A stretch of 64,000 nucleotides of DNA from NCBI GenBank assembly GCA_043800255.1, contig JAZDNF010000013.1:96001-160000 (forward strand). Reading direction: 5' to 3'. Below, piece after piece: positions 6,178 through 57,454 of the stretch (position 1 is the stretch's first letter; every line of letters begins with the position of its first letter). The stretch is from Candidatus Altiarchaeota archaeon. GTDB taxonomy: Archaea > Altiarchaeota > Altiarchaeia > IMC4 > SCGC-AAA252-I15. The notes under the pieces are model-generated. The model was not told the origin of the DNA. It searched no databases and saw only the letters and a program-made list of their open reading frames with translations. Position numbers and translations under genes: made by a program.

Positions 6178-6190
6178 ATTTATCGTTGAG

Positions 6191-10069: not shown

Positions 10070-10134
10070 TTTAAAGGTTAATTATAGATATATTAGCCTC
10101 CCATATAAGTTTAATGTTTTACTCTCGCCAGTAA

Positions 10135-10345: not shown

Positions 10346-10403
10346 ATATTGTTTTTTACTATTATTTGACATATTTAGAGTATACTCGGACTGTATATAG
10401 AAC

Positions 10404-11528: not shown

Positions 11529-11537
11529 GAGGAGGAG

Positions 11538-33047: not shown

Positions 33048-33055
33048 GTTTCGGA

Positions 33056-33811: not shown

Positions 33812-33838
33812 GATATTACCTTGTGTGGATAATTTATT

Positions 33839-35215: not shown

Positions 35216-35225
35216 TTTAAGCTTG

Positions 35226-38664: not shown

Positions 38665-38781
38665 AATTCTATCAGCTCTTGGGTATATTGTAGATATAGG
38701 TATAAACATAAAAAGTATCTTAAACCTAGCAGTCAACAAAAATGGATTAGTATATCACAATCCACAAATTACAAGTGCTTT

Positions 38782-40296: not shown

Positions 40297-40301
40297 TTAT
40301 T

Positions 40302-42260: not shown

Positions 42261-42417
42261 AGATACTTTACCACTCCATTTTAATCTGGTAATCTCCTAT
42301 AACTTAGGATTAATTCGTTTGCCATCTTTGCTATATAGGGGCAAAATTGAGGCCTAATATCCCACAAATTAAATGTCAACGTGAGGGATAACCCAAAGAG
42401 GCATTAGGTAATAAGCT

Positions 42418-43935
42418 TTATTGCATTTTAAGGATGCTCCTAGCTACACGTCTTATTGCTTTAGGTATGCTCGTTTTTATCCAATCCGGAATTGTGTTTC
42501 CTAGGTAGACGTAGAGCGCATATATGTAATAAGTCTTAGGTTTTGTCTTCTTATGGTAATATAATTTTAATTCTTCTCTCATAATTTGACCCCAATGCCG
42601 CCATACTTTGTCAGGCTCCTTTGTCAGATTAATTAAAGGTGCCCCCCCATGCTCAGCAACGAAATCGAGATATTCTTCAACATCTTGGACAAGTTTATTT
42701 TCTTCAACATATCGCCAAATAGGGGTCTCGGGTAGAGGAACCAGGTAGTTCAAAGAGAATTTATATGCGTCAACATCTTTTAAGAATTGGATTGTTTCAT
42801 AGATTGTTTCTGTCGTTTCTTTTGGGGATCCTATGACCAACTGTACGCAACACGCCATTCCCAAGTCTAATGTCAACTTGGTTATTCTCCTGTTTTGCTG
42901 GGAGCTTATACCTTTTCTATACTCTCTCAAGATTGTGTCTGAACCGGATTCCTGGCCGTAATCGACTTCAATACATCCAGTTTCTTTCAGCCGGATAAGC
43001 ATTCTCTCGTCAACCTTATCCGCTCTTGCACCAGGTACTACATAGAAAATATCAAGATTGTTCTTTTCTATCGCATCACACAATTCCATAACCCAACCAT
43101 AATCTGAATTAAACAATTCGTCATAGAAATAAAATCCACTGACCCCATATTTTTCCTTGATATATTTTATGTGGTTAGTCACATAATCCACACTATGTCT
43201 CCTGACTCCCCGGACATGCCTATAACAAAAAAGGCATCTGTTGGTACAGCCTGAAGACGTAGGAATCTCAATGTAGTGTGTTCTCGACCCCACCCGCGCT
43301 CTTGCATTGGAAATAATCGAATCACTAAGGAGTAAATCTTCATACATTTCAAGCCGATTCTTTACTGGGGACAGATACCGAGATACATCAATGAGCTGGT
43401 ATGCAGGAAATGGAATTTCGTCTAAATCTTTTATTTGCTCGGCAGGATCGTTTCTTACAGCCCTCCCATCTAGGGGATAGGATAGTCCAAGTATGTCATA
43501 TATCGTTTCCTTTTTTTCAAATCTCCTCAAAAATATAGGGAGGCTGACATCTGCTTCGCCATGGAAGACCACATCTACTTTGGTTTTTGTAAGCAATAAT
43601 TCATAAACGGATGCAAGAGCCCCACCGGCAATTTGCACAATTTTGGGGTATTTGCTCTTTATATGTAAAGATAATTGTTTGGTTCTCCCATAGGATGTTG
43701 CAATACCCCCGTAACCTATGATGGAAGGTTTATAATCTTCTATAATTTTATCAATTTTATCAAAGAAGTGGCCATTATCAAACTCTCGGAGTTCAATATC
43801 ATCCAAGTAGGGGTCTATTATTCTCGCTTGGTGACCGCATCTTTCGATTATTGATCCCACATATAATAAACCCCAAGGCACTCCAAACCCCGCAATTCCT
43901 CTGCGGGAGGGCACGTTTATCAGTAATATGTTCAT
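42418..43935 (-). CDS. B12-binding domain radical SAM protein
   Basis: LLINVP..PWGL, GEAD, SSGCTNRCLFC, GQESGS. Confidence 0.88.
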   Translation of the reverse strand: MNILLINVPSRRGIAGFGVPWGLLYVGSIIERCGHQARIIDPYLDDIELREFDNGHFFDKIDKIIEDYKPSIIGYGGIATSYGRTKQLSLHIKSKYPKIVQIAGGALASVYELLLTKTKVDVVFHGEADVSLPIFLRRFEKKETIYDILGLSYPLDGRAVRNDPAEQIKDLDEIPFPAYQLIDVSRYLSPVKNRLEMYEDLLLSDSIISNARARVGSRTHYIEIPTSSGCTNRCLFCYRHVRGVRRHSVDYVTNHIKYIKEKYGVSGFYFYDELFNSDYGWVMELCDAIEKNNLDIFYVVPGARADKVDERMLIRLKETGCIEVDYGQESGSDTILREYRKGISSQQNRRITKLTLDLGMACCVQLVIGSPKETTETIYETIQFLKDVDAYKFSLNYLVPLPETPIWRYVEENKLVQDVEEYLDFVAEHGGAPLINLTKEPDKVWRHWGQIMREELKLYYHKKTKPKTYYIYALYVYLGNTIPDWIKTSIPKAIRRVARSILKMQ

Positions 43936-43978
43936 AGAATTACCTCTGCAGGCTATCATTTACTTTGGAGTATCTCAA

Positions 43979-45037
43979 TTATTTGTGGTCTATCCTGTCC
44001 CAGAATATGACTTCATCCTCGTTAATATCCTTTCTTGTCTTTTTGCCTACAAGATCATTTAAAAATTTTGGCTCGATGCCAGTTCCAGGTCTTTTAATGA
44101 CGATCATTTTTTGGGTTATCTTTGTTCCTTTTGGTATGAACAGTTTTGCCACTAGGCTCCTTCTTGCAAATTTTCGTGCTTTATTCTCTGATTTTGTAGG
44201 TTTTTTTGTTTTGATCCCCATTGCCTTTTCTAAGACTCTGAAGCTATTTACAATATTTCTCAAATCCTCATAATCCGCCGATATCTCATGGTCATAGCCG
44301 GGTCTACTTTTATCAAAAGTGAAATGTTTTTCAATTACCTTAACGCCCATTGCAACAGCAGCAGTTAGTACATAGAGACTTTCAGGCATTTTAGTATGGT
44401 CAGAATATCCGACGGTATGTTGTGGAAATTTCTCAATTATATCCCTTATCATGTTTAGGTTTACATCCTCGATTTTTGTCGGATAGTTGGTGGTACAGTG
44501 TAGTAGGATAATCTGACCATTACCCTCAGACTCAATAATCTCGACAGCCTCCCGTATCTCATCGATTGTTGATGCTCCAGTGGAGAGGATTATCGGTTTC
44601 TTCTTTTTTGCTATATGCCTTATGAGAGGATGATGTGTTATGTCCATGGAACTAATCTTGTAGATGGAAACTCCAAGCTTCTCCAGCATATCTGCCGATT
44701 CCTCATCCGCAGGCGTCGAGAATAACACTATACCTGCATCATCCGCAACCTGCTTCAACTCCTGATACTGATTGAAACTAAGCTGTGGCATCTCATTGAA
44801 CTCTTCATACTGAGTCTCTCCAGGGCATCCTTCTATATCCCAGAACTTCGGCGCATCCCTTGTTACGAGCTTGTCAGGGACAAATGTCTGGAATTTTACA
44901 GCATCTGCACCCGCCAGAGCAGCCTCTTTTACCATTTCCTTTGCACGCTCAAAATCATTTTCAAAGTTGCATCCTATTTCGGCAATGACAAAAACAGAAG
45001 CTCTGCCAGTAATATCTTTAAGTAGATTATTTTGCAT
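43979..45037 (-). CDS. neuB: Nonulosonic acid synthase (NeuB/PseI/LegI family) with SAF domain
   Basis: IAEIG, GADAVKFQT, LHCTTNYP, GYSDHT, IEKHFT, RRS, KRPGTG. Confidence 0.9.
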   Translation of the reverse strand: MQNNLLKDITGRASVFVIAEIGCNFENDFERAKEMVKEAALAGADAVKFQTFVPDKLVTRDAPKFWDIEGCPGETQYEEFNEMPQLSFNQYQELKQVADDAGIVLFSTPADEESADMLEKLGVSIYKISSMDITHHPLIRHIAKKKKPIILSTGASTIDEIREAVEIIESEGNGQIILLHCTTNYPTKIEDVNLNMIRDIIEKFPQHTVGYSDHTKMPESLYVLTAAVAMGVKVIEKHFTFDKSRPGYDHEISADYEDLRNIVNSFRVLEKAMGIKTKKPTKSENKARKFARRSLVAKLFIPKGTKITQKMIVIKRPGTGIEPKFLNDLVGKKTRKDINEDEVIFWDRIDHK

Positions 45038-45067
45038 TTTTTATGCCTGATTTTCTATATGAGTATT

Positions 45068-46039
45068 TTAAAAGATCTCTGTGGAGTCCCCCATCGTAAA
45101 ATACCAATTCATATTATCTTTAATTTCTTCTGCATAATCAAATTGTTTATTCATGCGTATAACAAGAGGGATTTTAGTGTTTTCTTTGGAGAATCCTTTT
45201 TCCTCTAAAACCTCTTCAAATAATGGATTCCCCCATATCCAGCAAGTAACTTCATCAACATTATGTTCACTGAAAAAATTCAAACTTCCATCAACAAGTT
45301 TATCTAATGTATCTTTATCACCAGAACAGGTGAAAACATCTAATATGTGTCCCCTAAGGATCTTATCTTCTCGATAAAGCTTTAAGACAGTATACCCCCC
45401 GAGAGTTTTACCTTTGTATACTCCAAAGGGGAAATATTTCCAATCTGGCCGTTGTATATACCTCCAATTTAGATAATTTTTGTTTCTGACAACAGCGATT
45501 TTGTAGTCTTTACGACAGGAATCCCAGAGGTTATCAAAATCATCACCAAATTTGTCAATCTTGTGAAAACCGGGCAGCTCCTGTTTACCCACTAGGTTAG
45601 GTTTTGTTATTTTAAGGGCATCAAAAAAAATCAGATCAGAATACCCCATAAATCCTTTGTGAAGCGTATAGGAGCGTTTGTTGGGAAATCCGTAAGTGAC
45701 GGGGATATTGTTTTCTTTTAGATCTTCAAACAATTTATCGCTAATAAATTTTAAAAGACCTCTGTTTTGATATTTACTTTCGACCAGGGCGGCAATCGTG
45801 TGAGAGGCAATAATCTCTTCGTCAAAAACTTTTAGTCTAAACGGAACAGCTGCAAAATGGGCGATAATTTTCTCATCTTCTGTCATAACCCAAATGAAAG
45901 ATTTTCCCGAGGGATTGGCATCGGCATACTTCCAATACCAGTTGCTTAAATCGGTTCTGTTCCAAGGATGATCTTCCAGTCGCCTATCCAACGCCAAAAT
46001 TTCTTTTTCATCCCCCTTTTGATATGGCCTAATTTCCAT
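45068..46039 (-). CDS. Tandem GNAT-fold acyltransferase
   Basis: YQNRGL, YGFPN, R..NYLNWRY, TMGDS. Confidence 0.72.
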   Translation of the reverse strand: MEIRPYQKGDEKEILALDRRLEDHPWNRTDLSNWYWKYADANPSGKSFIWVMTEDEKIIAHFAAVPFRLKVFDEEIIASHTIAALVESKYQNRGLLKFISDKLFEDLKENNIPVTYGFPNKRSYTLHKGFMGYSDLIFFDALKITKPNLVGKQELPGFHKIDKFGDDFDNLWDSCRKDYKIAVVRNKNYLNWRYIQRPDWKYFPFGVYKGKTLGGYTVLKLYREDKILRGHILDVFTCSGDKDTLDKLVDGSLNFFSEHNVDEVTCWIWGNPLFEEVLEEKGFSKENTKIPLVIRMNKQFDYAEEIKDNMNWYFTMGDSTEIF

Positions 46040-46110
46040 GATTCGCACACCATATAACATATATTTTCGTATTTAAGACGTATAAGCCCCACACAAAAAA
46101 CAAAGGAGTT

Positions 46111-47193
46111 TTACAGAGCCATTTTTCTCATATTGGATTTATCTATTGAGGTGGAAGTGATTATCTTGGATAATCTTTCAGAACCCAAGCCGTCGGTAAT
46201 TCTTTTTGCATTTTTACTAAGTGAAACACGTTTCTTCTTATTCCCTAGTAGGTCTTTTAAAGAGTCTGCTATCAGCTCTTTTGGGATATCCGTTCCAATC
46301 CCTAAGTTTATTACTGCATTCTTCCGGGCGAAAATTTGGGCTACAGTATCGTGTAGTTTATGATGACCGATAACAATTGATGGAACTCCGAATATCGCCA
46401 GTTCATAGAGTGTATTACCGGCTGCGGTTATGGCGATATCACTTTCAGCCATGAATTTATACATTTGTCCTTGTGTAACATCCCATTCAAATTGATAAAC
46501 ATTCTTCAACTGGGATTCCAAAGATCGGAGTTCTTTTCTGTGTTTGGAAGACACAGCATGGCCGACTACAACAATTATTTTCTGTTTTAAATCCAGAAGC
46601 TCTAGTGACTTGATTATTTTAGATGTCAGACCATGAGGGTCCTCACCACCTTGATTTATAAAGATAGTTTTAGAGATTTCAGATATCCTTTTCTTTTTTT
46701 TCCATTCCTTGTGTAATATTTCTGGGAGCAACATATATTCTGGGTCGATACAGTATAAGGCTTTGCTCTTGGAAAATTTTTTATAAAATTTCTTGTTTTG
46801 AGCGATACTAAAATTGACTACTATATCCCCCGGAATCGCCCCGTGTTTATCGTCATCAAGAATAACTACTAAGAGTTGACTTGAATCCTTTAGGGTCTGA
46901 AAATAATCAGTATTCTTGTTCAAAAGATCGCAAATTAAAATTTCGATGTTTGATTTTTTGATAAACTTCAGTATAATGTCTATTTCTTTTTCTTCGCTTA
47001 TGTCCTTATCCAATTTTTTAACATGATAATTTTTTTCTTTTAAAATATTTACTGCAGGTGAAAAATTTTTTGTTAAAAAAAGGATGTTACAGTCCTTTCT
47101 TTTTTTTAGACTGTCTGCCAGCACAATGGATTCCATTAAGTGCCCCATACCAATTTTCTTACCGGCATCTACTCTAAAACAAATGTTCACCAT
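46111..47193 (-). CDS. PseG/SpsG-like NDP-sugar hydrolase
   Basis: FRVDAGKKIGMGHL, GGEDP, AAGNTLYE. Confidence 0.8.
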   Translation of the reverse strand: MVNICFRVDAGKKIGMGHLMESIVLADSLKKRKDCNILFLTKNFSPAVNILKEKNYHVKKLDKDISEEKEIDIILKFIKKSNIEILICDLLNKNTDYFQTLKDSSQLLVVILDDDKHGAIPGDIVVNFSIAQNKKFYKKFSKSKALYCIDPEYMLLPEILHKEWKKKKRISEISKTIFINQGGEDPHGLTSKIIKSLELLDLKQKIIVVVGHAVSSKHRKELRSLESQLKNVYQFEWDVTQGQMYKFMAESDIAITAAGNTLYELAIFGVPSIVIGHHKLHDTVAQIFARKNAVINLGIGTDIPKELIADSLKDLLGNKKKRVSLSKNAKRITDGLGSERLSKIITSTSIDKSNMRKMAL

Positions 47194-47199
47194 CTCGGA

Positions 47200-47865
47200 T
47201 TAGTTCCACTTATCGCGTATAACAACAAAGGCTTCCGCCGCTTTAAAGCCCACTTCAGTACCGCGTTTTATGGCTAAAATTTCTACACTCTTGTCAGAAC
47301 GGGGGTGTGGGAAATCCCTTTTTTCAGTCTGATAGCATCGCAATGCTTTGATTTTAGTCTCTAGATATTTTTCTATGTTTATGTAGAAATTAGGTAGAAA
47401 TGCAAGTTCGCTAAGATTGGGGGATTGTTCTGTCGATGATGGAGTCTCGTAGGATAATATCTTTTTAATTCCGAGATTTGCAAACGGTCTCAATGCAATC
47501 ATCGCCGCCTGGAACACAGCCCTATGGTCCTGATGGTTATCTCCTCTGTGGGTTACATACACGGTTTCGGGCTTAATCTTATTAACATATTGTTCTAATG
47601 GGATGAGTATGTCTTGGATGGAAACATCCAATCTCTCATCGTTTAAATTGAAAAATTCCGCCTCCTTGTATCCTAACACCTTTTTAGCTTTTAGGGCACA
47701 TTGAACTTCGATTTTATTTTTTTCATCGTTGAATTTGTGGTCATAGATGCGGTGCGCGATGAAACAAACGTATACTTCATCTTCCTCTGAGACGTGTCTT
47801 GCGATTGTTCCACCCATACCTAAAACCTCGTCATCCATGTGGGGTGCAATTACGAGTATTTTCAT
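47200..47865 (-). CDS. PIG-L family deacetylase
   Basis: APHMDDE, DNHQDH, YETPSSTE, HPRS. Confidence 0.88.
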   Translation of the reverse strand: MKILVIAPHMDDEVLGMGGTIARHVSEEDEVYVCFIAHRIYDHKFNDEKNKIEVQCALKAKKVLGYKEAEFFNLNDERLDVSIQDILIPLEQYVNKIKPETVYVTHRGDNHQDHRAVFQAAMIALRPFANLGIKKILSYETPSSTEQSPNLSELAFLPNFYINIEKYLETKIKALRCYQTEKRDFPHPRSDKSVEILAIKRGTEVGFKAAEAFVVIRDKWN

Positions 47866-48965
47866 TTTATTCCCTTCGGTCGAGCATCCATGGATTTAAT
47901 ATCAAGGTGCTGGTCTATATATACATTCATCTTAATTTTCTTATTACCAACTTTAATAACTTCCTCTTTGGTGATTCCGCCGTCACAACAGAGTTGGCAC
48001 GGGGCCAATTTTAACCTTCTTTTATTTTTCATCAAATCTCGCACACGATTAAACGCTTCACCATGCCATATATCACGCAACGATTGCTCTTTCACGTCGC
48101 CCAAGATATTACCTTCCAAGTAGTCACTGTGGCATTGCGCAACTCGGCCATCCCACATAACAGCCATCCTCTGCCATGGAGACTGACAGATGTAGTTGGG
48201 ATCACGGATGAAATTCATCTTCTCATCGGACCGTATCTCATCTGCAATAAAGTTTATTCTGTCTGCGACGGGAAGCCAGAAGTTTCTGTATTTTTCTGGA
48301 TTTTCCCTTATTGCCGACCAGATAGTTTGAACGCGAATCAAAGGCTTCTTTAAAACCTTGCTATCTCGATACTCCTTTAAGAATTTTACTTTCTTGACTA
48401 TATTCTCGAACTTTTCAGGATACCTTATCCTCTCGTAGGTTCCATCTAATCCATCAATCGAAAAACTCATCCAATCAAGACCAACATCTACCAATTTTTT
48501 TGATAATTCGGGATTAAGTCGCTCCCCGTTTGTCAAGAACGACACATCTTTTATGCCGCTGTCTTTAGCGTATTTCACCATATCGACAATTTTTGGGTTT
48601 AGGAGGGGCTCACCACGCCAACTTAATTTCACCGAATACACTCTCTCCCTCACGCACTCATCTATTACCTTTTTGTATAAGTCGAACTCCATGTTTCCTT
48701 CTTGTATTCCCCTCTTCTTCATCAGATGCCTTCCACACATAGGACATTGCATCTGGCACAAACTCGAAGTTTCAATATCAACATGACTTGGGAAGTCAAA
48801 TACATGGAAAAAACGTGGGCCGAAATGCCATTTGAACCTGTCTTTTACGTGAGCAACCACGTGGCCCTGACCAAGAAAGTATCTTAAATTCTCCCATCTG
48901 CTGCTAAGGCTGAAGTAATCATGATTTATTTTTACGTCGAACCAATTTTGATTCCAGAGGTTCAT
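47862..48965 (-). CDS. Radical SAM protein with SPASM/twitch domain
   Basis: CQMQCPMC, GEPLL, TNG, CQSPW...DG.VAQC...CQLC. Confidence 0.88.
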   Translation of the reverse strand: MNLWNQNWFDVKINHDYFSLSSRWENLRYFLGQGHVVAHVKDRFKWHFGPRFFHVFDFPSHVDIETSSLCQMQCPMCGRHLMKKRGIQEGNMEFDLYKKVIDECVRERVYSVKLSWRGEPLLNPKIVDMVKYAKDSGIKDVSFLTNGERLNPELSKKLVDVGLDWMSFSIDGLDGTYERIRYPEKFENIVKKVKFLKEYRDSKVLKKPLIRVQTIWSAIRENPEKYRNFWLPVADRINFIADEIRSDEKMNFIRDPNYICQSPWQRMAVMWDGRVAQCHSDYLEGNILGDVKEQSLRDIWHGEAFNRVRDLMKNKRRLKLAPCQLCCDGGITKEEVIKVGNKKIKMNVYIDQHLDIKSMDARPKGIK

Positions 48966-48980
48966 GGCTTCTCACTAATT

Positions 48981-50132
48981 CTAGGATCCTTTCAAAGTTT
49001 GATAAAGATATTCCCGATAGCGCTCACTAGTTGCCCATAACGATTTAGATTTATAGATTCTTTTGAACGCGTTTTTGGAGATAGGAAACTTAGAGGCTGG
49101 CACTTCTATATGCCCGCCACCTTTAGGTTCTGCATCTTCGCTATTATCATGGAAGAAATACAATTTGCATATTCTAGTAATCTGAGAGAGGTATTCTTCG
49201 ATTGTAGAGTAGTCCATTTCAGATAAACTACCGACATTTATAAACAAGTCTGCAGAATCTGGTGCAAGTCTAGGAAGCTGGAAATTAGGCATTAGAATGA
49301 TGTCATACTTGTCAAGGGTATTAAATGAGATGTCCATGCCTTCAGTTTCGCCAAACAAGAGAATCTTCTTTTCAGGGAAAGCATTCATCAAATAATACTG
49401 CGCAACTAAAAGAACTTCAGGTAAGTCGAAGTCGATATACTTACACGGTTTAACTGAGGATAACAGATAGTGTGCAAGACCCCCATAACCGCCACCAATT
49501 TCAGCAACAACTGGTCGTCTAACGTCAATAAGTAGGTTTTTGACGTGACTAGCATAATAATGATGCCGACAGGAATTTGATGTGATTAGATTGCCTTCGA
49601 TAATATACCCCCAGGGATTGCCTATAGGGGGGACAGATAGGTTACCGACATCGGCGTTATCAACAAAATCCTTCCATACCGTAAAATCCTGCAGAATGCA
49701 GTTAACGAATCTCCTCTTCCTGGAAGCGTTACCATCGATGATATCCTGATGATAGGCGTAGGATAATAGACCAGCAGCACCACTATTGCGAAAGAAATTC
49801 TTGAGCAGATTGCTCAGGGACGGAATATCGTTGTCAGCAAGGGCTTTTAAATAGTTTGCACGTCTTGTTTTTATGTCAATGTCCCACTCACCTCCGGGCT
49901 TATAAGCAGGGGGCACATTCTTTTGTTCTGCCTTCGCTTTATGGTAAGAAACAAGTATCCTGTTTACTATAGCCTCGTGATATTTGCTACTGATAGGGTT
50001 GGTAATGAGTGCCAATCCATTTTCAAGGAGGGAAAGGTCCGCTAGGGGGTTAGAGTCAAAACTCCTGCGAGTGTTCAAGTCCGAATAAACTTTTTTGATA
50101 GCTGAAAGTACCTTGTCGGTTGGGTTAGTCAT
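48981..50132 (-). CDS. Putative sugar O-methyltransferase
   Basis: GNP, EIGGGYGG, DLPE, SLSEM. Confidence 0.75.
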   Translation of the reverse strand: MTNPTDKVLSAIKKVYSDLNTRRSFDSNPLADLSLLENGLALITNPISSKYHEAIVNRILVSYHKAKAEQKNVPPAYKPGGEWDIDIKTRRANYLKALADNDIPSLSNLLKNFFRNSGAAGLLSYAYHQDIIDGNASRKRRFVNCILQDFTVWKDFVDNADVGNLSVPPIGNPWGYIIEGNLITSNSCRHHYYASHVKNLLIDVRRPVVAEIGGGYGGLAHYLLSSVKPCKYIDFDLPEVLLVAQYYLMNAFPEKKILLFGETEGMDISFNTLDKYDIILMPNFQLPRLAPDSADLFINVGSLSEMDYSTIEEYLSQITRICKLYFFHDNSEDAEPKGGGHIEVPASKFPISKNAFKRIYKSKSLWATSERYREYLYQTLKGS

Positions 50133-50541
50133 CGGGGATATCTATCTCCTCCATTAGTTCGATTAATCCGGTTTGTTTTTTATACAAAAAAACAATTTTT
50201 CTATTATTGAATGCTCTAGAGGGTAATAATTTTGTTGCAACTACAAACCCTTTTTCCCTTAAGGTTTTTAACGTCTTGTCAAAATTTTTTGCAGTGTATG
50301 CCATATGGTAGGGAATCGCATAATTATTTTTTAGAAATCGATTAACTGGATTATGCGGGTTGTCGGGCGTAATCAACTCGACTAACGGATGATCCGGCTT
50401 CCTTAAAACTGCAATTCTTATGTTTTGGTTTTCGTCTTTAGCGGTGTTAATAAGGGTGAATCCTAGAGACTCAAATGCTCCTATAGTTTCATCTAGATTC
50501 TCGGTTGCATAACCCAGGTGGTGGAACTTAAGTTCATTCAT
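50125..50541 (-). CDS. VOC family protein (methylmalonyl-CoA epimerase-like)
   Basis: FHHLGYA, ELI.P, YHMAY, GLIELME. Start re-assigned to ATG 50541. Confidence 0.82.
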   Translation of the reverse strand: MNELKFHHLGYATENLDETIGAFESLGFTLINTAKDENQNIRIAVLRKPDHPLVELITPDNPHNPVNRFLKNNYAIPYHMAYTAKNFDKTLKTLREKGFVVATKLLPSRAFNNRKIVFLYKKQTGLIELMEEIDIPDD

Positions 50542-50543
50542 CT

Positions 50544-51575
50544 TTATTTTGATTTGCCCTCTGCCAGCAGAATGGCATACTTTAAGGCATCGAAAAGACT
50601 GCCATAATCCGCAGTTCCTTTCCCGGCTTTGCCGAATGCCGTGCCGTGGTCCACGGAAGTACGGATAATGGGCAGGCCGAGAGTGATGTTGACCCCCTTC
50701 ATAACCCATGATCTGGAATCTTCGTTATATATGAAACCTAAGACTTTGGTTGGAATGTGTCCTTGGTCATGGTACATTGCTACAACAGCATCGTACATTC
50801 CCCCTTTCGCCTTTGAGAAAAGGGTGTCTGCGGGAACGGGTCCTTCTGCCTTAATTCCTAGCTTTTGAGCTTCTGTTACGGCGGGTGAGATTTCTTTTAT
50901 TTCCTCATCGCCGAATGCACCGCCCTCTCCACTGTGGGGATTCAAACCGGCCACGCCTATTTTCGGCTCTTTGATATTCAGTTGTTTGCATGTGCTATTC
51001 GCTAGTTTAATTACGTCGATTATTCGATCCTTTTTGATATATTTTGTTATTGCATCTAAAAGGGAGACATGCGTGGTAACGTGGAGAACCCTAAGGTTTC
51101 CGTGAGCCAGCATCATAGAGTATTTTTTTGTACCTGTTAAACCTGCTAACATTTCCGTATGTCCTGCGTATTTTTTTCCATAACCCCCTAGAACAAATGC
51201 TTCTTTGTTGATGGGATTAGTTACAATGGCATCAATTTTTTTTTCTAATGCCAGCTGAATCGCTTTTTCTATGTACTCCCCCGCAGCTTTACCGGCCTTT
51301 GATGAAATTTGACCAAAGGTGTAATCAGAGGGGGATATGTTGTCCAAATCGCACACGTAAACTCTGCCGGGTGAGATACGTTCATCCACATCGCGTATTT
51401 TCTCAAATTTAACGCTTGATTTTATTACATCAAAACCCTGCTGGACAACTTTCGCGTCACCAATGATTATGGGTGTGCACATTTTGGTGACATTCTCGTA
51501 AGTCAACATTTTAGCCGTTATTTCAGAACCAATCCCCGCGGGATCGCCAATCGTAATGCCGATCTTTGGTAGCAT
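50544..51575 (-). CDS. pdxA: PdxA-family NAD-dependent dehydrogenase/decarboxylase
   Basis: GDPAGIG, GHTE, GLNPHSGE, YHDQG, RTSVDHGTAF. Confidence 0.88.
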   Translation of the reverse strand: MLPKIGITIGDPAGIGSEITAKMLTYENVTKMCTPIIIGDAKVVQQGFDVIKSSVKFEKIRDVDERISPGRVYVCDLDNISPSDYTFGQISSKAGKAAGEYIEKAIQLALEKKIDAIVTNPINKEAFVLGGYGKKYAGHTEMLAGLTGTKKYSMMLAHGNLRVLHVTTHVSLLDAITKYIKKDRIIDVIKLANSTCKQLNIKEPKIGVAGLNPHSGEGGAFGDEEIKEISPAVTEAQKLGIKAEGPVPADTLFSKAKGGMYDAVVAMYHDQGHIPTKVLGFIYNEDSRSWVMKGVNITLGLPIIRTSVDHGTAFGKAGKGTADYGSLFDALKYAILLAEGKSK

Positions 51576-51578
51576 ACA

Positions 51579-52355
51579 TTACACCTCCTTGAGTAGATCA
51601 ACCAATTGACTATGGACACTGCCATTAGATGCAACGAGTTCCTTAGAATCCGTGGAAATGTTATCACCATTAAAATCAGTAACCATGCCACCCGCCTCCC
51701 TAACAAGCGTAACGCCGGCAGCAAAGTCGAAAATCTTTGTATTATTCCAGACTCTCGCATCGATTATTCCCGAGGCGATTAAACCAAAATCATAGACTGC
51801 GGAACCGAAAATCCTAGTAGTAAAACTATGATCAACTAATCTTTTGTATCTCTCAAACGAGTATTTACTCAGATAAAATTGATTATCGTAGGTAATCATG
51901 CTTTTCTCTAAAACTTTGTTATCAGAGACTGCTATGGGCTTTCCGTTCATAAATGCGCCGTTTCCCTTTACAGCATAGTACATCTCATCAAAATAGGGTA
52001 GGTGTATGACACCAAGGACGAACTCGTGTTTGCTCAATAATGCGATAGAGACGCCAAAATTTGGAACACCCGCAATAAAGTTATGGGTTCCGTCCACTGG
52101 ATCTACAACCCAGAAAAGATTACTGTCGATGTTTTCGCTTAATCTCTTCTCTTCTGACAGAACGGGATAAGGAAATTTTTCGGTTAATAGTCTATGGGAT
52201 AGGTTTTGACATTCGATATCCACATTTGAAACAAACTCTTTGGGGGTTTTTCTAATTACCTTTAGATCCTTTCTAAAATGACCTTGTTGGATTTCTCCAA
52301 CTCTGCGTGCTGTCGATTTTGCAACCTCGAGCTCTACTAAAAAATCACTTTTCAT
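51579..52355 (-). CDS. Inositol monophosphatase family protein
   Basis: SEE, WVVDPVDGTHNF, FDFAAG. Confidence 0.88.
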   Translation of the reverse strand: MKSDFLVELEVAKSTARRVGEIQQGHFRKDLKVIRKTPKEFVSNVDIECQNLSHRLLTEKFPYPVLSEEKRLSENIDSNLFWVVDPVDGTHNFIAGVPNFGVSIALLSKHEFVLGVIHLPYFDEMYYAVKGNGAFMNGKPIAVSDNKVLEKSMITYDNQFYLSKYSFERYKRLVDHSFTTRIFGSAVYDFGLIASGIIDARVWNNTKIFDFAAGVTLVREAGGMVTDFNGDNISTDSKELVASNGSVHSQLVDLLKEV

Positions 52356-53862
52356 TTGAAACCCCTCTCAGTTTTCTTCTTAGATTCTTTCCGGACGGGC
52401 CTTTAGGTATATTATCAACAAATTCGACTTTATCAGGTATCTTATCACGGGATATGTATTTTTTGCAGAAATTTATTATATCGGTGTCTCTGATATTCTT
52501 GTCTTCTTTCAGAACAATAAATGAAACAATTTTTTCACCTAGATATTCGTCAGGGACTCCGACAGTAGCTACTTCTTTTATTTCATCCATCTTAGATAAA
52601 ATTTCATCAATTTCGTCAGGAGAGATATTAACTCCCCCCTTTATTATCAAATCTTTTTTCCTTCCAGTGAAGAAAAAGGTATTATCCCTTGTTACATACC
52701 CCAGGTCACCAGTGTGGAAGTAGTTATCCTTTACGACTTTATTGTATAATCTCTCGTTATTGCGATAACCAATAAAAACATTCTCGCCTTTGATTACTAT
52801 CTCCCCGATTTCGCCTGGCCCGAGTATGTGGTTTTGTTCATCCATGATTTTTGCTTCATTAACGTCCAATGGCTTCCCGATACTCCCAGGTTTCCATCCT
52901 TCATCCAATGGATAATCAATGTGCGTAGGTCCAGTCTCGGACAGTCCATAGAGGTTGGCCACTCTGATGCCATATTTTTGCATGAATTTGACTTGTGTAT
53001 CTTTTGGCAGGGTGGCAGAACCGCATCCAATAAATCTTATTAGTCTAATATTTTCAAATTCATTTTTCTTGTAGGGTGTGTTTAAGAGCGCTACAAGAAT
53101 GGATGGAACCACTTCTACATAAGTAATATTCTGTTCTCTCATAATCTTCCAAAATTTTGCTCTTATTTTCCAAAAAGATTCAGTCAATACTAATGTTCCT
53201 CCACAGAGTGTACAGGGGAGAAACGAGTAATTAATAGACGCAGTATGGCCTAATGGCAGTATTATTAGATGGACCTCGTTTTCATCAAATCTAAATCCCC
53301 GGATGATAGATGAAATATTTTTTATGATGTTATTATGTGAAAAGACAACCCCTTTGGGATTTCCAGTTGTGCCAGAGGAATAATAGACACATGCTGGGGA
53401 ATCCTTCTTTGGGACGAAATCGATATAATTTTGCTTCGTTTTTTTTAGACTATCGATAAAATCTGTTTCAATTAAAAAGATGTCGGAGGGGGTGTTTGTT
53501 TTCAGATCTGGGTAGTGACTTTCTTGACAGAGGGTAATTCGTGGTTTCATGTTTTCTATGTATCGGGATATGTCTTTTCCATCTAGAGTATATGGATAGG
53601 GATTAAAGATGCAGCCAAGTCTAAGTGCGGAGAGGTACAGTAGGATATATTCTACACTGTTTTTGATAACCGCGGATATTATGTCGCCTTTTCTTAAACC
53701 GAGTGATTCATACAGAGAGCATACCCTATCCAGCAGATTGTTTATTTTTGAAAAACTATATTTCTCTTCATCCTGGATTAGAAATATTTTATCAGGATTT
53801 TTGTCTGCATAATATGCTATGGAGGAGCTGATGTTTGTGATATCCTCAAATTTCATTGCCAC
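52345..53862 (-). CDS. AMP-forming acyl-CoA/acyl-ACP ligase
   Basis: YSSGTTGNPKG, YGLSET, HTGDLG, PKGPSGK. Confidence 0.9.
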   Translation of the reverse strand: MAMKFEDITNISSSIAYYADKNPDKIFLIQDEEKYSFSKINNLLDRVCSLYESLGLRKGDIISAVIKNSVEYILLYLSALRLGCIFNPYPYTLDGKDISRYIENMKPRITLCQESHYPDLKTNTPSDIFLIETDFIDSLKKTKQNYIDFVPKKDSPACVYYSSGTTGNPKGVVFSHNNIIKNISSIIRGFRFDENEVHLIILPLGHTASINYSFLPCTLCGGTLVLTESFWKIRAKFWKIMREQNITYVEVVPSILVALLNTPYKKNEFENIRLIRFIGCGSATLPKDTQVKFMQKYGIRVANLYGLSETGPTHIDYPLDEGWKPGSIGKPLDVNEAKIMDEQNHILGPGEIGEIVIKGENVFIGYRNNERLYNKVVKDNYFHTGDLGYVTRDNTFFFTGRKKDLIIKGGVNISPDEIDEILSKMDEIKEVATVGVPDEYLGEKIVSFIVLKEDKNIRDTDIINFCKKYISRDKIPDKVEFVDNIPKGPSGKNLRRKLRGVSNEK

Positions 53863-54091
53863 TTTTTATCGCTTTTTTCTGTTCTAAAATCCTATAAACA
53901 TCTTTGATGGACATTATACTAAAAATTTCTTCCATTTCAAATATTACATTAAATTCTTTTTCTAAAGCATTGATTAATTTTAATTGACCGAGTGAGTCCC
54001 ATTTTTCTATGTCGTCTGACGTCATCTCCATATTTATACCGGCTATGTCTATCTCAAATACTGAGGCAATTATCTCTTTGACCTTTTTCAT
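53846..54091 (-). CDS. Acyl carrier protein
   Basis: 81 aa, acidic, WDSL phosphopantetheine site, LEKEF. Confidence 0.85.
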   Translation of the reverse strand: MKKVKEIIASVFEIDIAGINMEMTSDDIEKWDSLGQLKLINALEKEFNVIFEMEEIFSIMSIKDVYRILEQKKAIKSGNEI

Positions 54092-54156
54092 GATAATCGA
54101 TAATGGCGTACCTTGGAAATGTAAGTAAGGGATTATATTTTGTGGTTAATAAGGGA

Positions 54157-54570
54157 CTACATTGCCCTATTTCTTCTAAAGATAATAGCAACCGCAACAG
54201 CCAAATTAATGGAATGGGATAAGCTTATACGGATATCGAACTCGCCCGTATTATGGTTTAATAGTTTGCCTAAAGGGGTGCCCTTGTCGTCATTTATAAT
54301 CTCGACTTCGTTATAGGCTATTTTCTTGTTAAACGATGACAATGCTTTTACGACTGCTTCTTTTCCTGCAAATTTGGCGGCAAAATGTTGAGAGGGTTTT
54401 GATTTGCCCATACAATATTTGATTTCCTTTTCCGTAAATATTTTTTTTAGGAATGCATTATCTAGACTAGTATCTTCCTCGAACCTAGAGGTATCAACAC
54501 AGTCGATACCGATTTCCACATCAGTAATTCCTAATGCCCGGGAGGGGGGGGTCATATTTTCTTTTGACAT
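54157..54570 (-). CDS. acpS: Holo-ACP synthase (AcpS-type PPTase)
   Basis: IGIDCVD..RF, FTEKE, FAGKEAVVKA, ISLSHS. Confidence 0.88.
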   Translation of the reverse strand: MSKENMTPPSRALGITDVEIGIDCVDTSRFEEDTSLDNAFLKKIFTEKEIKYCMGKSKPSQHFAAKFAGKEAVVKALSSFNKKIAYNEVEIINDDKGTPLGKLLNHNTGEFDIRISLSHSINLAVAVAIIFRRNRAM

Positions 54571-55187
54571 GACGTTAACCTCTTTTTCAAGACTTGTTCC
54601 GCAAGCCAGAAGTCGAACTCATCATCGATTTCTATGTTTTGCTCTCGGTCTAGGATGACTCTTTCTATTTTCTTGCCGAACCGGTCCCCTTTGCGAATCA
54701 AATCCGCTTTTATGACGTAGACGTTACCATCATCATAAAAGAAACCTTTGATATCCTGCCTGCGGAGGTTATGTGACCCGTATTCTCTGTAGTTACACAT
54801 AAAACCAGTAGCGAGTGAATCGACACCAGAATCCAAGAATCTTTTGATACACGTATCAATTAGACCATTATTACGTATTGGTGACGTAGCCTGCAATAAA
54901 ACGACAACATCCGCATTTATCTTTTTTAGAACATCTTGTAGAACTGAGAGAGTTGTTGCCTCATCAGTGGCTAGTTTAGGCGGGCGCTGAACGACATCTG
55001 CACCATATTTTTTCGAAATCCTGGCAATCTCCTCATCTTCAGTCGAGACAACGTACTTGTCCAATAACTTCGATTCTTTTGCAGCCTCTATAGTCCATGC
55101 AATCAATGGTCTTCCGCATGAGAGTCTGATATTCTTTCTGGGAATACCCTTGCTCCCGCCGCGCGCGGGAGTAACGCCAAGTATCAT
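54552..55187 (-). CDS. neuA: Acylneuraminate cytidylyltransferase (NeuA/PseF family)
   Basis: PARGGSKGIPRKN, QATSPIR, EIDDEFDF. Confidence 0.88.
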   Translation of the reverse strand: MILGVTPARGGSKGIPRKNIRLSCGRPLIAWTIEAAKESKLLDKYVVSTEDEEIARISKKYGADVVQRPPKLATDEATTLSVLQDVLKKINADVVVLLQATSPIRNNGLIDTCIKRFLDSGVDSLATGFMCNYREYGSHNLRRQDIKGFFYDDGNVYVIKADLIRKGDRFGKKIERVILDREQNIEIDDEFDFWLAEQVLKKRLTSCQKKI

Positions 55188-55192
55188 AACAA

Positions 55193-56125
55193 TTAGATTA
55201 AACCCTGCTTACGAGCTATCTCCCGGCCCTCTTTTTTATACCAGTCTATGTACTTCTTCAAACCCTTCTCGAAAGTTATCTTTGGTTCCCAACCAATATC
55301 TTTTCTTGCCTTCTCGCTTACGACTTCCTTGCCGCTGAAATCGCCCTCCCTCGACCCCTCATATTTTATCTCAACGTTCCCAAGGATATCTTTCACAGTT
55401 TCCGCAATCTGCTTTATGGTAATCTTCTCCTTCCCGCTTAGATTGTATATCTGATTCTCTGCTATTTTTTTCATTGCAAGAACATTACCCTCAGCCAGAT
55501 CAGTAACATAGACGAATTGCCTGTACTGCATACCACCACCAAGTATGGTTATCGGTTCGCCCTTCAACGCTTTTTCAACAAAGATTTGGATGACCGTGCC
55601 CGGCCTAGCTCTCTCTCCATAGGGGATGCCATACCGCAGGATTGTATATGGAACGTGGTACAGCTCCTTATAGTTCTGGCAGTAGAACTCAGACGCGAGT
55701 TTGGTTGAAGTATAGAGATGAGTCGGCGCTAATGGGGGAGTTGTCTCATCAACAACCTCTTTTAATGTGTTGCTATAAACCCACTCAGTACTAGCGTATA
55801 TTATCCTCTTAGCGCCGGATTTTCGGATAGCCTCTAGCACATTTATTGTTCCGGTAGTATTCACGCTCTCGGCTAAAACCGGGTTCTTGAAAACATCATT
55901 AACATTGGCTATGGCCGCAATATGATAGACAAAATCAACATCCTTCATAGCCTTTGTTAAAGCGTCTAAGTCAAGTAGCGACCCCTTCGTGAATTCAACC
56001 TCCTTTTTACTGTGATACATTGGCTCATACAGATCATATACCCTGACGTCTAATTTTTCTTTTAATAACTTGTCAACAATAGTTGAACCAATAAAACCAG
56101 AACCACCGGTTACAAGAACTGCCAT
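55193..56125 (-). CDS. NAD-dependent sugar epimerase/dehydratase
   Basis: TGGSGFIG, ASTEWVY, YTSTK, RYGIPYG. Confidence 0.85.
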   Translation of the reverse strand: MAVLVTGGSGFIGSTIVDKLLKEKLDVRVYDLYEPMYHSKKEVEFTKGSLLDLDALTKAMKDVDFVYHIAAIANVNDVFKNPVLAESVNTTGTINVLEAIRKSGAKRIIYASTEWVYSNTLKEVVDETTPPLAPTHLYTSTKLASEFYCQNYKELYHVPYTILRYGIPYGERARPGTVIQIFVEKALKGEPITILGGGMQYRQFVYVTDLAEGNVLAMKKIAENQIYNLSGKEKITIKQIAETVKDILGNVEIKYEGSREGDFSGKEVVSEKARKDIGWEPKITFEKGLKKYIDWYKKEGREIARKQGLI

Positions 56126-56126
56126 C

Positions 56127-57245
56127 TTACAATACCTCCTTCAGAGAATCAACTACATAATTTGCATCATCCTTAGTCATTGTGGCATAAACTGGCAGGC
56201 AGATATGCCTCTTGCATAAATCCTCTGCAATTGGGAAGTCACCTTCCTTGTAACCGTGCGCGTCTTTGAATATCGGCTGTAAATGACATGGAAGTTCATA
56301 GACCTCACCACTCAGACTGACATCATACTTTTCCTTCAATTTCTTTTTCAACTCTGCCCTATCCACGCCGTCATCAAGAACTGCAATATACTTGTAATAG
56401 TTCGACTTGGAATTTTCTGGTATTTTTAGCACATTTATTTTATCAACTTCGTTAAGACGTTTATCATAAACTTTTGCAGCATTCCTTCTGTCCTTCAGGA
56501 ACCCCTCAAGCCTCGAAAACTGGGAAAGACCGATTACTGCATGAATCTCGCTCATCCTCCAGTTATAACCCAATTCAGTGTGAATATTGCCGAGAAAACC
56601 AGCCTTACCCTGGTCCCTGAAAACCCTAGCTCGCTTATCCATCTCCTCATCGTCTGTGACAATCATGCCCCCTTCGCCGCTGGTCATCACCTTTGTAGGA
56701 TAGAAAGAGAATGATGCTGCCTGCCCGAAAGTACCAGCCATTTTCCCATCTAGTGTGCTCCCATGCGCATGAGCAGCATCCTCGAATAGGAATACGTCGT
56801 TGTCTTCGCAAATCTTTTTAATCTCGCCTATTTTTGGCGTAACAAGCCCGCCAATGTGGACGATTATTACCCCTCCAGTCTTCTTTGTGATTTTTTCATT
56901 CAACTCATCAGGGTCTATGGAAAACGTTTCTGGGTCCATGTCTAGAAACTTTACCTTGCCGCCAGCATGCAAAACAGCCGCGGGTGTTGCAACAAAGGTA
57001 TTAGTTGGCACAAGGACTTCTTTATCCTTCACATCAAAAATCCGGAGGGGTATCTCAATTGAACTTGTTCCGCTATTGACAGCGGTCGCAAATTTTGTCC
57101 CAACATAGACCGCAAATTTTTCCTCGAATTCCTTGCCGTATTTGCCTAAAGTTAACCAACCAGTGCCTAAAATCCCATTAATCTTTTCGAGGATATCCTT
57201 CTTATCCTCCTCGGGGAAGTATATTTTAGCTGCAGGAATTTTCAT
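56127..57245 (-). CDS. DegT/DnrJ family sugar aminotransferase
   Basis: EDAAHAHG, FSFYPTKVMTSGEGG. Confidence 0.9.
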   Translation of the reverse strand: MKIPAAKIYFPEEDKKDILEKINGILGTGWLTLGKYGKEFEEKFAVYVGTKFATAVNSGTSSIEIPLRIFDVKDKEVLVPTNTFVATPAAVLHAGGKVKFLDMDPETFSIDPDELNEKITKKTGGVIIVHIGGLVTPKIGEIKKICEDNDVFLFEDAAHAHGSTLDGKMAGTFGQAASFSFYPTKVMTSGEGGMIVTDDEEMDKRARVFRDQGKAGFLGNIHTELGYNWRMSEIHAVIGLSQFSRLEGFLKDRRNAAKVYDKRLNEVDKINVLKIPENSKSNYYKYIAVLDDGVDRAELKKKLKEKYDVSLSGEVYELPCHLQPIFKDAHGYKEGDFPIAEDLCKRHICLPVYATMTKDDANYVVDSLKEVL

Positions 57246-57285
57246 GGTTCTTTAATATTTATCAAAATCATTATTAAAACCAGTA

Positions 57286-57430
57286 GTTTCGGACAGCTTT
57301 GCTCCTTAACTCCAAATAGGAGCGGCATAAAGGAGCATCTGAAACCATTTGGGAGCAGATGGGGGTAAAAAGGAGCAACCGCCGACAAAAAGGAGCAGAA
57401 CGCTATTTAGGAGCAAAGTCGTTTCGGACA
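57286..57430. repeat. MITE-like element with 10-bp direct repeats, terminal inverted repeats and 20-bp phased internal GGAGCA repeats
   Basis: GTTTCGGACA at 57286 and 57421; CTTTGCTCCT...AGGAGCAAAG just inside them; GGAGCA at 57332, 57352, 57372, 57392 and 57410. Confidence 0.6.
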
Positions 57431-57454
57431 TTCTGGCATTGTGGTACACTATTT

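Follow-up and report, generated by a model that had tools for sequence, protein, structure and literature searches.

The canonical route to pseudaminic acid runs through PseB, PseC, PseH, PseG, PseI and PseF, of which PseH is an acyltransferase with a single GNAT domain. In Vibrio cholerae O1, a surface-sugar gene cluster contains a tetronate module (rfbK-O, also wbeK-O) with a dedicated acyl carrier protein (ACP) and an adenylating ligase, and a small hydroxy-acid is the proposed N-acyl group on the amino sugar perosamine; a literature search gave no paper on this module. In polyketide biosynthesis, FkbH, a single HAD-type enzyme using 1,3-bisphosphoglycerate, forms the glyceryl-ACP that becomes methoxymalonyl-ACP: a phosphorylated C3 acid is placed on an ACP, loses its phosphate, and is oxidised and O-methylated before it passes to a polyketide synthase. 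Nonulosonates with N-glyceroyl or di-O-methylglyceroyl groups occur on the flagellin of Campylobacter jejuni. In Aeromonas, the Group II flagellin glycosylation islands hold genes for an ACP, a 3-oxoacyl-ACP reductase, an AMP-dependent synthetase, LuxE and LuxC between pse genes (PMC7874193). For the N-glyceroyl group of the sugar Pse5Am7Gra of Tannerella forsythia, the genes responsible are described as not known, and likewise the enzymes that place N-glyceroyl on pseudaminic-type sugars (PMC5378307). The stretch of DNA analysed here, termed the window, comprises 64,000 nucleotides from a Candidatus Altiarchaeota archaeon (assembly GCA_043800255.1, contig JAZDNF010000013.1, positions 96,001 to 160,000). 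It contains an operon of 15 genes that probably makes a CMP-activated nonulosonic acid of the 5,7-diamino type (pseudaminic- or legionaminic-like), one of its N-acyl groups being, instead of acetyl, a small polar acid built on a dedicated carrier protein.

Like the Pse pathway, the operon has an aminotransferase, a PseG-like hydrolase, a NeuB-type synthase and a CMP-transferase, with a GNAT in the position of PseH. However, this GNAT is a double one of 323 amino acids, the dehydratase is not PseB-like, and seven extra genes for an acyl unit are inserted together with a deacetylase. Moreover, every sugar enzyme falls below its NCBIfam equivalog cut-off. The aminotransferase scores 256 bits with PseC (cut-off 423.5) and 234.5 bits with the LegC family, also below cut-off. 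The short-chain dehydrogenase/reductase (SDR) scores best with dTDP-glucose 4,6-dehydratase (164 bits), then with LegB (119 bits), and reaches only 65.2 bits with PseB (TIGR03589, cut-off 407.75). The CMP-transferase reaches 126.8 bits with PseF (TIGR03584, cut-off 205.7), and the synthase reaches 358.9 bits with NeuB_NnaB (cut-off 399.65) and 289.1 bits with PseI (cut-off 340.25).

The V. cholerae module resembles the operon in its ACP and ligase and in the proposed fate of its product. It differs in its reductase of the LuxC/LuxE type and its iron alcohol dehydrogenase, for Pfam assigns none of the 15 genes to these families, whereas the PdxA-like dehydrogenase, the IMPase-family phosphatase, the VOC protein, the tandem GNAT and the PIG-L deacetylase are specific to the present cassette. 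In addition, the acceptor here would be a nonulosonate precursor rather than perosamine. The idea of an ACP and a ligase building the N-acyl group of an amino sugar is old, while this combination of enzymes appears to be new. The logic proposed for the operon parallels that of the FkbH route, with an adenylating ligase and an IMPase-family phosphatase in place of one HAD-type enzyme, and the acyl group would be transferred to a sugar amine rather than to a polyketide synthase; no HAD domain is found by Pfam among the 15 genes, and a HAD gene at 33056-33811 belongs to a downstream module. The Aeromonas islands share an ACP and an AMP-dependent synthetase, of uncharacterised function, among pseudaminic acid genes, but they are bacterial and flagellar, their partners are fatty-acid-like or LuxCE-like, and the available part of the report mentions no phosphatase, PdxA or tandem GNAT (PMC7874193). 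The N-glyceroyl and di-O-methylglyceroyl nonulosonates of T. forsythia and C. jejuni are products of the kind that the cassette could make.

The first-pass annotation of the window knew of no described pathway that combines PdxA and IMPase with ACP and NeuB, and a literature search likewise found none. No published description of the wider cassette (PdxA-like, IMPase, VOC, double GNAT, PIG-L) was found either, subscription journals and supplements lying outside the search. Two surveys of nonulosonate clusters lack the searched cassette terms in their main texts, although their supplements could list such genes (PMC13317340, PMC7371886). No published work linking Altiarchaeota to nonulosonates was found, and titles and the beginnings of abstracts give no function for Cj1307, Cj1308, acpP2 or Cj1299.

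The carrier system is the only one of its kind in the source genome (G000; 1.75 Mb in 17 contigs, 93% complete, 1.3% contamination; window at G000:C14:96001-160000). The sole PP-binding match in this genome is the ACP of the operon, and the sole ACPS match is its AcpS. The ACP keeps a W-D-S-L serine motif, of which W-D-S is invariant in 19 homologues. These observations agree with the earlier proposal of a self-contained thiotemplate module with its own phosphopantetheinyl transferase (PPTase). Across the phylum, a PP-binding match is found in 2 of 61 genomes, the window genome and one other (G011), and carrier-protein chemistry appears to be foreign to the Altiarchaeota lineage. At the G011 locus (L137, G011:C31:85700-105600), positions 9594-11701 encode an AcpS and an ACP that are 46% and 35% identical to those of the window, and a different AMP-ligase that is 25% identical. 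These genes lie among aminotransferase and SDR sugar genes; IMPase and PdxA are absent there. An AcpS gene stands beside the ACP gene in G011 and in one of four archaeal loci with a related ligase, compared to none of 32 such bacterial loci. AcpS probably travels with the cassette because Altiarchaeota have no AcpS of their own.

It has been observed that the cassette recurs in other genomes. A single ligase query of genome contigs found no relatives, and an alignment of 31 ligases was needed. Searched against contigs of one genome per species, this alignment gave 39 loci, from which three with unrelated ligases (22–24% identity) were dropped to leave 36 (at least 35% identity). Among metagenome contigs, a ligase query gave one 1.5 kb fragment of 35% identity. 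The loci were compared with 31 window proteins by tblastn, and matches within 10 kb of the ligase were counted. IMPase is found in 30 of the 36 loci, ACP in 21, NeuB in 19, PdxA in 15, PIG-L in 10 (31–38% identity; in 7 of them together with GNAT), GNAT in 8, VOC in 6 (7 at a laxer threshold, with the homologues between GNAT and ligase) and AcpS in 1. The radical SAM/SPASM enzyme has weak homologues (25–30% identity) in four loci (L101, L119, L122, L124), and the NanM-type O-methyltransferase has no tblastn match in the 39 fetched loci. The order PseG-NeuB-GNAT-VOC-ligase-IMPase-PdxA-ACP-PIG-L is found in a Fibrobacterota single-amplified genome (L094), in an Omnitrophota metagenome-assembled genome (MAG; L098) and in two Clostridia MAGs (L102, L107). 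Saganbacteria (L101) and Aminicenantes (L106, L097) have almost the same order. In seven loci the GNAT gene lies directly between NeuB and the VOC or ligase genes.

Other loci contain variants of the same module. In a Methanosarcinales MAG (L108), AcpS and ACP are followed by a single chain of 1112 amino acids that joins ligase, mannitol-dehydrogenase-like and IMPase domains. Modules without PdxA have a divergent gene resembling GAPDH or E4P dehydrogenase beside ACP, ligase and IMPase, as in Sphingobium mellinum (L093), Anaerolineales (L103), Methanobacteriota (L109) and Pelagibacterales (L120). Beside modules without GNAT there is an LbH (hexapeptide) N-acyltransferase of the PglD/NeuD type (L093, L095, L119). 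The Sphingobium module consists of the GAPDH-like gene, ACP, ligase, IMPase and LbH acyltransferase, with no NeuB match within 10 kb. In the Anaerolineales locus, a non-homologous NodB-type deacetylase takes the place of PIG-L. Further additions are a NeuC/LegG-type epimerase in L095, a FabG-like ketoreductase after PdxA in L095 and L096, a class III aminotransferase in L096, and a xylose-isomerase-like TIM-barrel protein in L119. This distribution suggests that ligase, phosphatase, a dehydrogenase of a family acting on phosphorylated substrates, and ACP form one unit. Because loci without GNAT carry an LbH N-acyltransferase, the unit appears always to be paired with an amino-sugar N-acyltransferase, and often also with a de-N-acetylase. 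The deacetylate-then-acylate idea of the first-pass annotation fits both the seven loci with GNAT and PIG-L and the NodB-type variant.

A distant variant with conserved gene order occurs in marine Pseudomonadota and a Methanobacteriota MAG (L113, L116, L118). Its order is NeuB, GT2, a DUF4910/M28-like gene, ligase, IMPase, a 135-amino-acid protein, an Antibiotic_NAT-type acetyltransferase, a LIC12162-family transferase and a CMP-transferase, and tblastn found no ACP in these three loci.

Protein fusions tie the acyl-forming enzymes to one another. Relatives of the ligase number in the thousands, and among the best of them, forms of 752–774 amino acids carry an IMPase domain (P0012, P0020, P0048, P0061). 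The same ligase-IMPase fusion is found in L111, and the three-part chain of L108 has a counterpart in P0243. Because such fusions exist, ligase, dehydrogenase and phosphatase probably function together. Along with the co-occurrence in the 36 loci, the fusions support the earlier assignment of PdxA, IMPase and VOC to the ACP and ligase. It had also been proposed that the acyl group is built first and loaded afterwards. The fusion order of ligase, dehydrogenase and phosphatase instead suggests tailoring after loading. Two further kinds of fusion join small-acid ligases to dehydrogenases: P0292 (902 amino acids), in which a ligase relative of 33% identity is joined to a D-isomer-specific 2-hydroxyacid dehydrogenase, and the ligase-aldehyde dehydrogenase fusions of Pseudothioglobus (969 amino acids).

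The nearest solved structures to the ligase are oxalate-CoA ligases and malonyl-CoA synthetase (190–217 bits). Oxalate and malonate being small anionic acids, the substrate of the ligase would likewise be small, with a distal negative charge. A D-alanyl carrier system of the DltA/DltC type was considered and rejected, as there is no DltA structure among 27 PDB matches at E ≤ 1e-40. The PdxA-family protein is closer to structures of PdxA2 and D-threonate-4-phosphate dehydrogenase (240–312 bits) than to Escherichia coli PdxA (167 bits), and it keeps the conserved active-site motifs of the family (GHTE, HVTTH, NPHxGE, YHDQGH and TSVDHGTA), as alignment to solved PdxA structures shows. An insertion of 8–11 residues with a conserved tryptophan is common to all 16 cassette PdxA copies and is absent from four aligned solved PdxA and PdxA2 sequences; the cassette protein thus appears to belong to a distinct subfamily. 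It is the only PdxA of the genome, in which PdxS is present (358 bits) and PdxJ was not found at 93% completeness. Because PdxS is present and no PdxJ was found, a role of this PdxA in vitamin B6 synthesis was rejected. The IMPase is generic, its closest structure being a Thermotoga inositol monophosphatase, and the VOC protein is a weak relative of methylmalonyl-CoA epimerase (TIGR03081, below cut-off).

PdxA enzymes oxidise a carbinol adjoining CH2-O-phosphate, and all three dehydrogenase families of these modules (PdxA, mannitol-dehydrogenase-like and GAPDH-like) act on phosphorylated substrates. Both 3-phosphoglyceroyl and 4-phospho-tetronoyl thioesters would fit PdxA, because both offer a carbinol beside CH2-O-phosphate. 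The first choice for the acid is 3-phosphoglycerate, at somewhat less than an even chance. It is favoured because it is a universal metabolite, because a GAPDH-like partner is found in other variants, because nonulosonates with N-glyceroyl and methylated glyceroyl groups exist whose enzymes are not known, and because an O-methyltransferase is encoded here. The second choice, with a distinctly smaller chance, is a C4 acid with a 4-phosphate, either 4-phospho-erythronate or 4-phospho-threonate, and what probability remains is spread over other acids.

The candidate for transferring the acyl group is the tandem GNAT, which is the only acyltransferase among the 15 genes. Its two-domain nature, noted in the first-pass annotation from sequence, is confirmed by a confident AlphaFold2 model (predicted local distance difference test, pLDDT, 90.4; predicted template modelling score 0.89). 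In Foldseek comparisons this model matches the Eis-like double-GNAT structures 3n7z, 2i00, 2hv2 and 2ozg and N-myristoyltransferases (E 1e-13 to 1e-18, TM 0.60–0.67), with sequence identity of 10–16%. Eis proteins have a third, C-terminal domain, which is absent in the 323-residue GNAT. As a single sequence the GNAT matches no solved structure at E ≤ 0.01, and a profile gave only E 0.02–0.2. Its family comprises 153 unnamed proteins with a length near 323 amino acids, many of which are probably encoded on the same contigs as relatives of the ligase. Within the cassette it is the best-conserved protein (46–64% identity in eight loci). No orthologue was found in the other 60 genomes of the phylum, in which paralogues of at most 35% identity occur in three. 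The window genome itself contains a distant double-GNAT paralogue, 28–31% identical, in a 359-residue frame (G000:C2:37758-38780).

A complex of GNAT and ACP was also predicted. Three runs scored 0.47, 0.44 and 0.43 (median 0.44), compared to 0.00 for the best of three controls, with 100% contact agreement between runs and a partner pLDDT of 85. The mark used for such predictions is reached by 58 of 80 solved complexes and by 2 of 110 mismatched pairs. At the mark, scores of 0.60 or under belong to only 7 of the 80 solved complexes and to both mismatched pairs, and the prediction weakly suggests that GNAT and ACP pair.

The amine that accepts the acyl group would be either the C4 amine (N7 of the final sugar) or the C2 amine (N5). 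In favour of the former, the GNAT stands at the PseH position in loci of the PseG type and the LbH protein at the LegH position in loci of the LegG type. In favour of the latter, the deacetylase travels with the cassette.

From these observations, the following sequence of steps is proposed. The SDR and aminotransferase would make the C4 amine of a nucleotide hexose. AcpS would convert apo-ACP into holo-ACP in a host without another PPTase, and the ligase would adenylate a phosphorylated small hydroxy-acid and join it to the ACP as a thioester. The PdxA-like dehydrogenase would then oxidise the carbinol next to CH2-O-phosphate, the IMPase would take the phosphate off the acyl unit, and the VOC protein would epimerise or isomerise the ACP-bound thioester. 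In the archaeal version, the NanM-like methyltransferase and perhaps radical SAM enzymes may decorate the acyl group further. The tandem GNAT would move the finished group to the sugar, either to the C4 amine, in a step equivalent to that of PseH, or to a C2 amine unmasked by PIG-L, after which PseG, NeuB and the CMP-transferase would complete the sugar. A more far-reaching proposal is tentative and, taken as a whole, rather doubtful. It holds that PdxA-family dehydrogenase and IMPase act on an ACP-tethered phospho-hydroxyacyl thioester with the phosphate as a handle that is removed late, that this chemistry is widespread in uncultured bacteria and has been captured several times, each time along with AcpS, by archaea otherwise devoid of carrier-protein chemistry, and that it gives Altiarchaeota a new acylated, perhaps O-methylated, surface nonulosonate.

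Several points weigh against these proposals. The gene families and their layout, the singular ACP, AcpS and PdxA, the recurring neighbourhood, the fusions, the GNAT fold and the low-GC island are observations, whereas the chemistry itself, the choice of acid, the sequence in which it is tailored and the nitrogen that receives it are inferences. As the sugar enzymes all score below their equivalog cut-offs, the stereochemistry of the nonulosonate would not be assignable from them. The chemistry also varies among the three dehydrogenase types: aldehydes are oxidised by GAPDH-type enzymes, secondary alcohols by those of the PdxA and mannitol-dehydrogenase types, and the modules may therefore build different acids. 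We know of no precedent for a PdxA acting on a thioester-tethered substrate, and PdxA2-type enzymes decarboxylate C4 substrates, which on a free acid would destroy the carboxylate that the ligase needs. It is also possible that the ligase could make a CoA thioester instead of loading the ACP directly. With one N-acyltransferase and one deacetylase for two nitrogens, the acceptor is ambiguous and one amine may stay free. Finally, the support from the predicted GNAT-ACP complex is weak.

In one alternative, the cargo of ACP, ligase and GNAT is an ordinary small acid or an amino acid, such as hydroxybutyrate or alanine, while PdxA and IMPase act on the sugar, for instance to provide a phosphorylated precursor of the sugar or nonulosonate or to remove its phosphate. 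IMPase enzymes normally act on sugar or polyol phosphates, the closest solved relatives of this one are inositol monophosphatases, sialic acid synthesis in animals proceeds through a 9-phosphate intermediate, and PdxA2-type enzymes act on free sugar-acid phosphates. However, the phosphatase is fused to the ligase, with or without a dehydrogenase between them, and it comes after the ligase in 30 of 36 loci, irrespective of the sugar genes around them. The Sphingobium module also lacks a NeuB match within 10 kb. This division of labour is accordingly held to be unlikely.

Slightly less likely again is that the carrier module acylates something other than the nitrogen of a nonulosonate, the acyl group being O-linked or going to a different sugar of the glycan, to a lipid anchor or to a protein. 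The window contains many further sugar genes and a second CMP-sugar module, and the structural neighbours of the GNAT include a protein acylase, N-myristoyltransferase. For the ACP genes of the Aeromonas islands, the authors suggested a lipo-sugar (PMC7874193). Three features of the loci speak for an amino sugar instead, namely the placement of GNAT directly between NeuB and VOC or ligase in seven of them, the PglD/NeuD amino-sugar N-acyltransferase type of the alternative acyltransferases, and the deacetylase that travels with the cassette.

It is very improbable that the IMPase is a CysQ-like phosphatase which clears the 3',5'-ADP released by PPTases and leaves the acyl group untouched. CysQ belongs to the same family (110 bits), but the HisN and IMPase models outscore it, the IMPase is fused to the ligase and not to AcpS, and the IMPase persists in bacterial loci that lack AcpS (over the 36 loci, IMPase in 30 and AcpS in 1).

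The source genome lacks a detectable 16S rRNA gene, being incomplete, and it was placed by elongation factor EF-2 instead, which is 75–79% identical to that of Altiarchaeota/Altiarchaeales MAGs and at most 62% identical to that of other archaea. Geranylgeranylglyceryl phosphate (GGGP) synthase is also found (166 bits), and methyl-coenzyme M reductase was not found in the 93%-complete genome. Within the 215 kb contig, the operon is enclosed in an island of about 57 kb with 39–42% GC (window 4500-62000, G000:C14:100001-160000), compared to 50.2% for the genome and 50–52% for both flanks. For a backbone gene 11–14 kb upstream (C14:81830-84652), which encodes a protein of 941 amino acids, 20 of the 20 other family genomes carry a full-length orthologue of 55–68% identity. 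Thus the contig backbone is native to an Altiarchaeota genome and the operon island is foreign-looking. The archaeal host suggested in the first-pass annotation is confirmed, whereas the archaeal novelty of the system is not. The cassette, which was to be sought in other genomes, recurs across bacterial phyla, in at least eight of them and in several archaeal lineages, and it appears to be widespread and mainly bacterial rather than an archaeal invention. It was probably acquired here by transfer between domains. Mis-binning or a chimera with bacterial DNA, or an import that is dead or idle in the archaeon, is scarcely credible as an explanation of the cluster, since its low GC and mostly bacterial nearest homologues are set against an island that lies within a long contig with both flanks at genome GC, the conserved backbone gene, 15 of 15 open and tightly coupled frames, and the confinement of AcpS beside ACP to archaeal copies, in keeping with adaptation to a PPTase-less host. 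A look for public sequencing runs covering window positions 46000-55900 listed none, RNA included.

A quick maximum-likelihood tree of 34 ligases (midpoint root) places five archaeal ligases in four or five separate positions, each beside bacteria. SH-aLRT values are 99 for the window ligase with a Proteobacteria/Sphingobium group, 99 for L118 with a gammaproteobacterium and 98 for L109 with Omnitrophota. The tree gives a hint, though not proof, of several inter-domain transfers of the ligase, in whichever direction. Repeated transfer fits the tree, the low GC of the island and the lack of the cassette in relatives.

The genes of the operon are listed below. As described in the first-pass annotation, they are co-directional, overlapping or abutting, and of the families named, which open reading frames, Pfam and NCBIfam all bear out. 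This includes the O-methyltransferase, for which the NCBIfam model passes its cut-off despite the lack of a Pfam match. Gaps range from 1 to about 70 nucleotides, and neighbouring genes overlap at five places (CMP-transferase/AcpS, ACP/ligase, ligase/IMPase, VOC/methyltransferase and radical SAM/PIG-L).

Table 1. Genes of the operon (window positions 43979-57245) and the run that follows it, with family assignments by Pfam and NCBIfam profile scores against their cut-offs.
Feature	Position in window	Strand	Profile evidence
DegT/PseC/LegC-type sugar aminotransferase	56127..57245	-	PF01041 377 bits
Extended SDR, probable NDP-hexose 4,6-dehydratase or epimerase	55193..56125	-	PF01370 184 bits
CMP-nonulosonate synthetase (PseF/NeuA-like)	54552..55187	-	PF02348 (CTP_transf_3) 94 bits
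AcpS-type phosphopantetheinyl transferase	54157..54570	-	PF01648 56.9 bits (cut-off 25); TIGR00516 62.5 (cut-off 59.8)
Acyl carrier protein (ACP)	53846..54091	-	PF00550 32.1 bits (cut-off 20.8)
Adenylate-forming ligase	52345..53862	-	PF00501 AMP-binding 238 bits; PF13193 C-terminal domain 54 bits
IMPase-family phosphatase	51579..52355	-	PF00459 (Inositol_P) 179 bits; HisN 168.6, below cut-off
PdxA-family NAD(P)-dependent dehydrogenase	50544..51575	-	PF04166 348 bits; TIGR00557 342.8 (cut-off 290.35)
VOC/glyoxalase-fold protein	50125..50541	-	PF13669 (Glyoxalase_4) 60 bits; TIGR03081 44.9, below cut-off
NanM-type putative O-methyltransferase	48981..50132	-	TIGR04371 113 bits (cut-off 44), residues 170-330; no Pfam match
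Radical SAM/SPASM enzyme	47862..48965	-	PF04055 60 bits; PF13186 52 bits
PIG-L/LmbE-family de-N-acetylase	47200..47865	-	PF02585 78 bits
PseG-like nucleotide-sugar hydrolase	46111..47193	-	TIGR03590 146.3 bits (cut-off 153.55); weak GT28 C-terminal Pfam match
Tandem-GNAT acyltransferase	45068..46060	-	PF13527 (Acetyltransf_9) 46 bits, N-terminal half only
NeuB-family nonulosonate synthase	43979..45037	-	PF03102 277 bits; SAF 44 bits
Downstream co-directional run	36215..43959	-	B12-radical SAM, 652-aa putative transferase, flippase, HMGL-like/MptE(Maf)-like fusion, second CMP-transferase (Pfam)

The true start of the VOC gene is the ATG at 50541 (residue M57 of the longer frame), directly past the PdxA stop, and the 323 residues of the GNAT are counted from the ATG at 46039. 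The entire window is a surface-glycan region. Co-directional glycan genes run on downstream to about 25 kb, and because of this the lower boundary of the operon span is arbitrary. At its start the glycan island encodes an initiating transferase of the GT4 family, followed by a B12-radical SAM enzyme, a GT2 and a GT-C of the PMT_2 type; its end lies near genes for an AAA_14/DUF4143 ATPase and an AbiEi-like protein. The island contains three genes for B12-binding radical SAM enzymes (6149-7603, 33839-35215 and 42418-43959), and similar genes accompany the cassette in seven loci (L095, L096, L101, L111, L119, L122, L124). Their presence suggests C-methylation of the sugar or of the acyl group.

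The HMGL-like/MptE(Maf)-like fusion (591 amino acids) and the second CMP-transferase lie at 36215-38739. They are 63% and 52% identical, respectively, to neighbours of AcpS, ACP and ligase in the Methanosarcinales MAG (L108:6850-9347), and they may include a transferase for the activated sugar. A second unusual module, at 32271-36236, encodes an LdpA-like 4Fe-4S protein, a B12-radical SAM enzyme, a HAD phosphatase and an HpcH/HpaI aldolase; it sits just upstream of a protein of 619 amino acids with a weak Epimerase_2 match.

Upstream of the operon, the intergenic region 57246-57454 contains three exact copies of TGCTCCTTT at 57329-57397, GCTCC repeats of looser form and a GTCCGAAAC word that recurs. 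The repeat pattern of this region has five matches in the window compared to 1.4 expected, a number reached by 1 of 100 shuffles, and the repeats may be a binding site for a regulator. Directly beyond it on the same strand, 57455-59530 encodes a protein of 691 amino acids with no Pfam match. An unannotated protein of 693 amino acids downstream of the cassette in L102 has no tblastn similarity to it at E ≤ 1e-8.

The enzymes that add non-acetyl groups to pseudaminic and legionaminic acids are largely unknown, and such groups shape antigenicity and recognition. The cassette described here is compact, and among its carriers are the cultured bacteria Sphingobium mellinum DSM 7458 and Desulfamplus magnetovallimortis. 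If the proposed chemistry is true, it would be a new route to polar N-acyl groups for sialic-acid-like sugars, and the PdxA and IMPase families would gain a new role in carrier-protein chemistry. For the archaeon itself, this would mean that an ACP and its PPTase are kept for glycan decoration alone, which bears on the debate over why archaea lack ACP-based metabolism.

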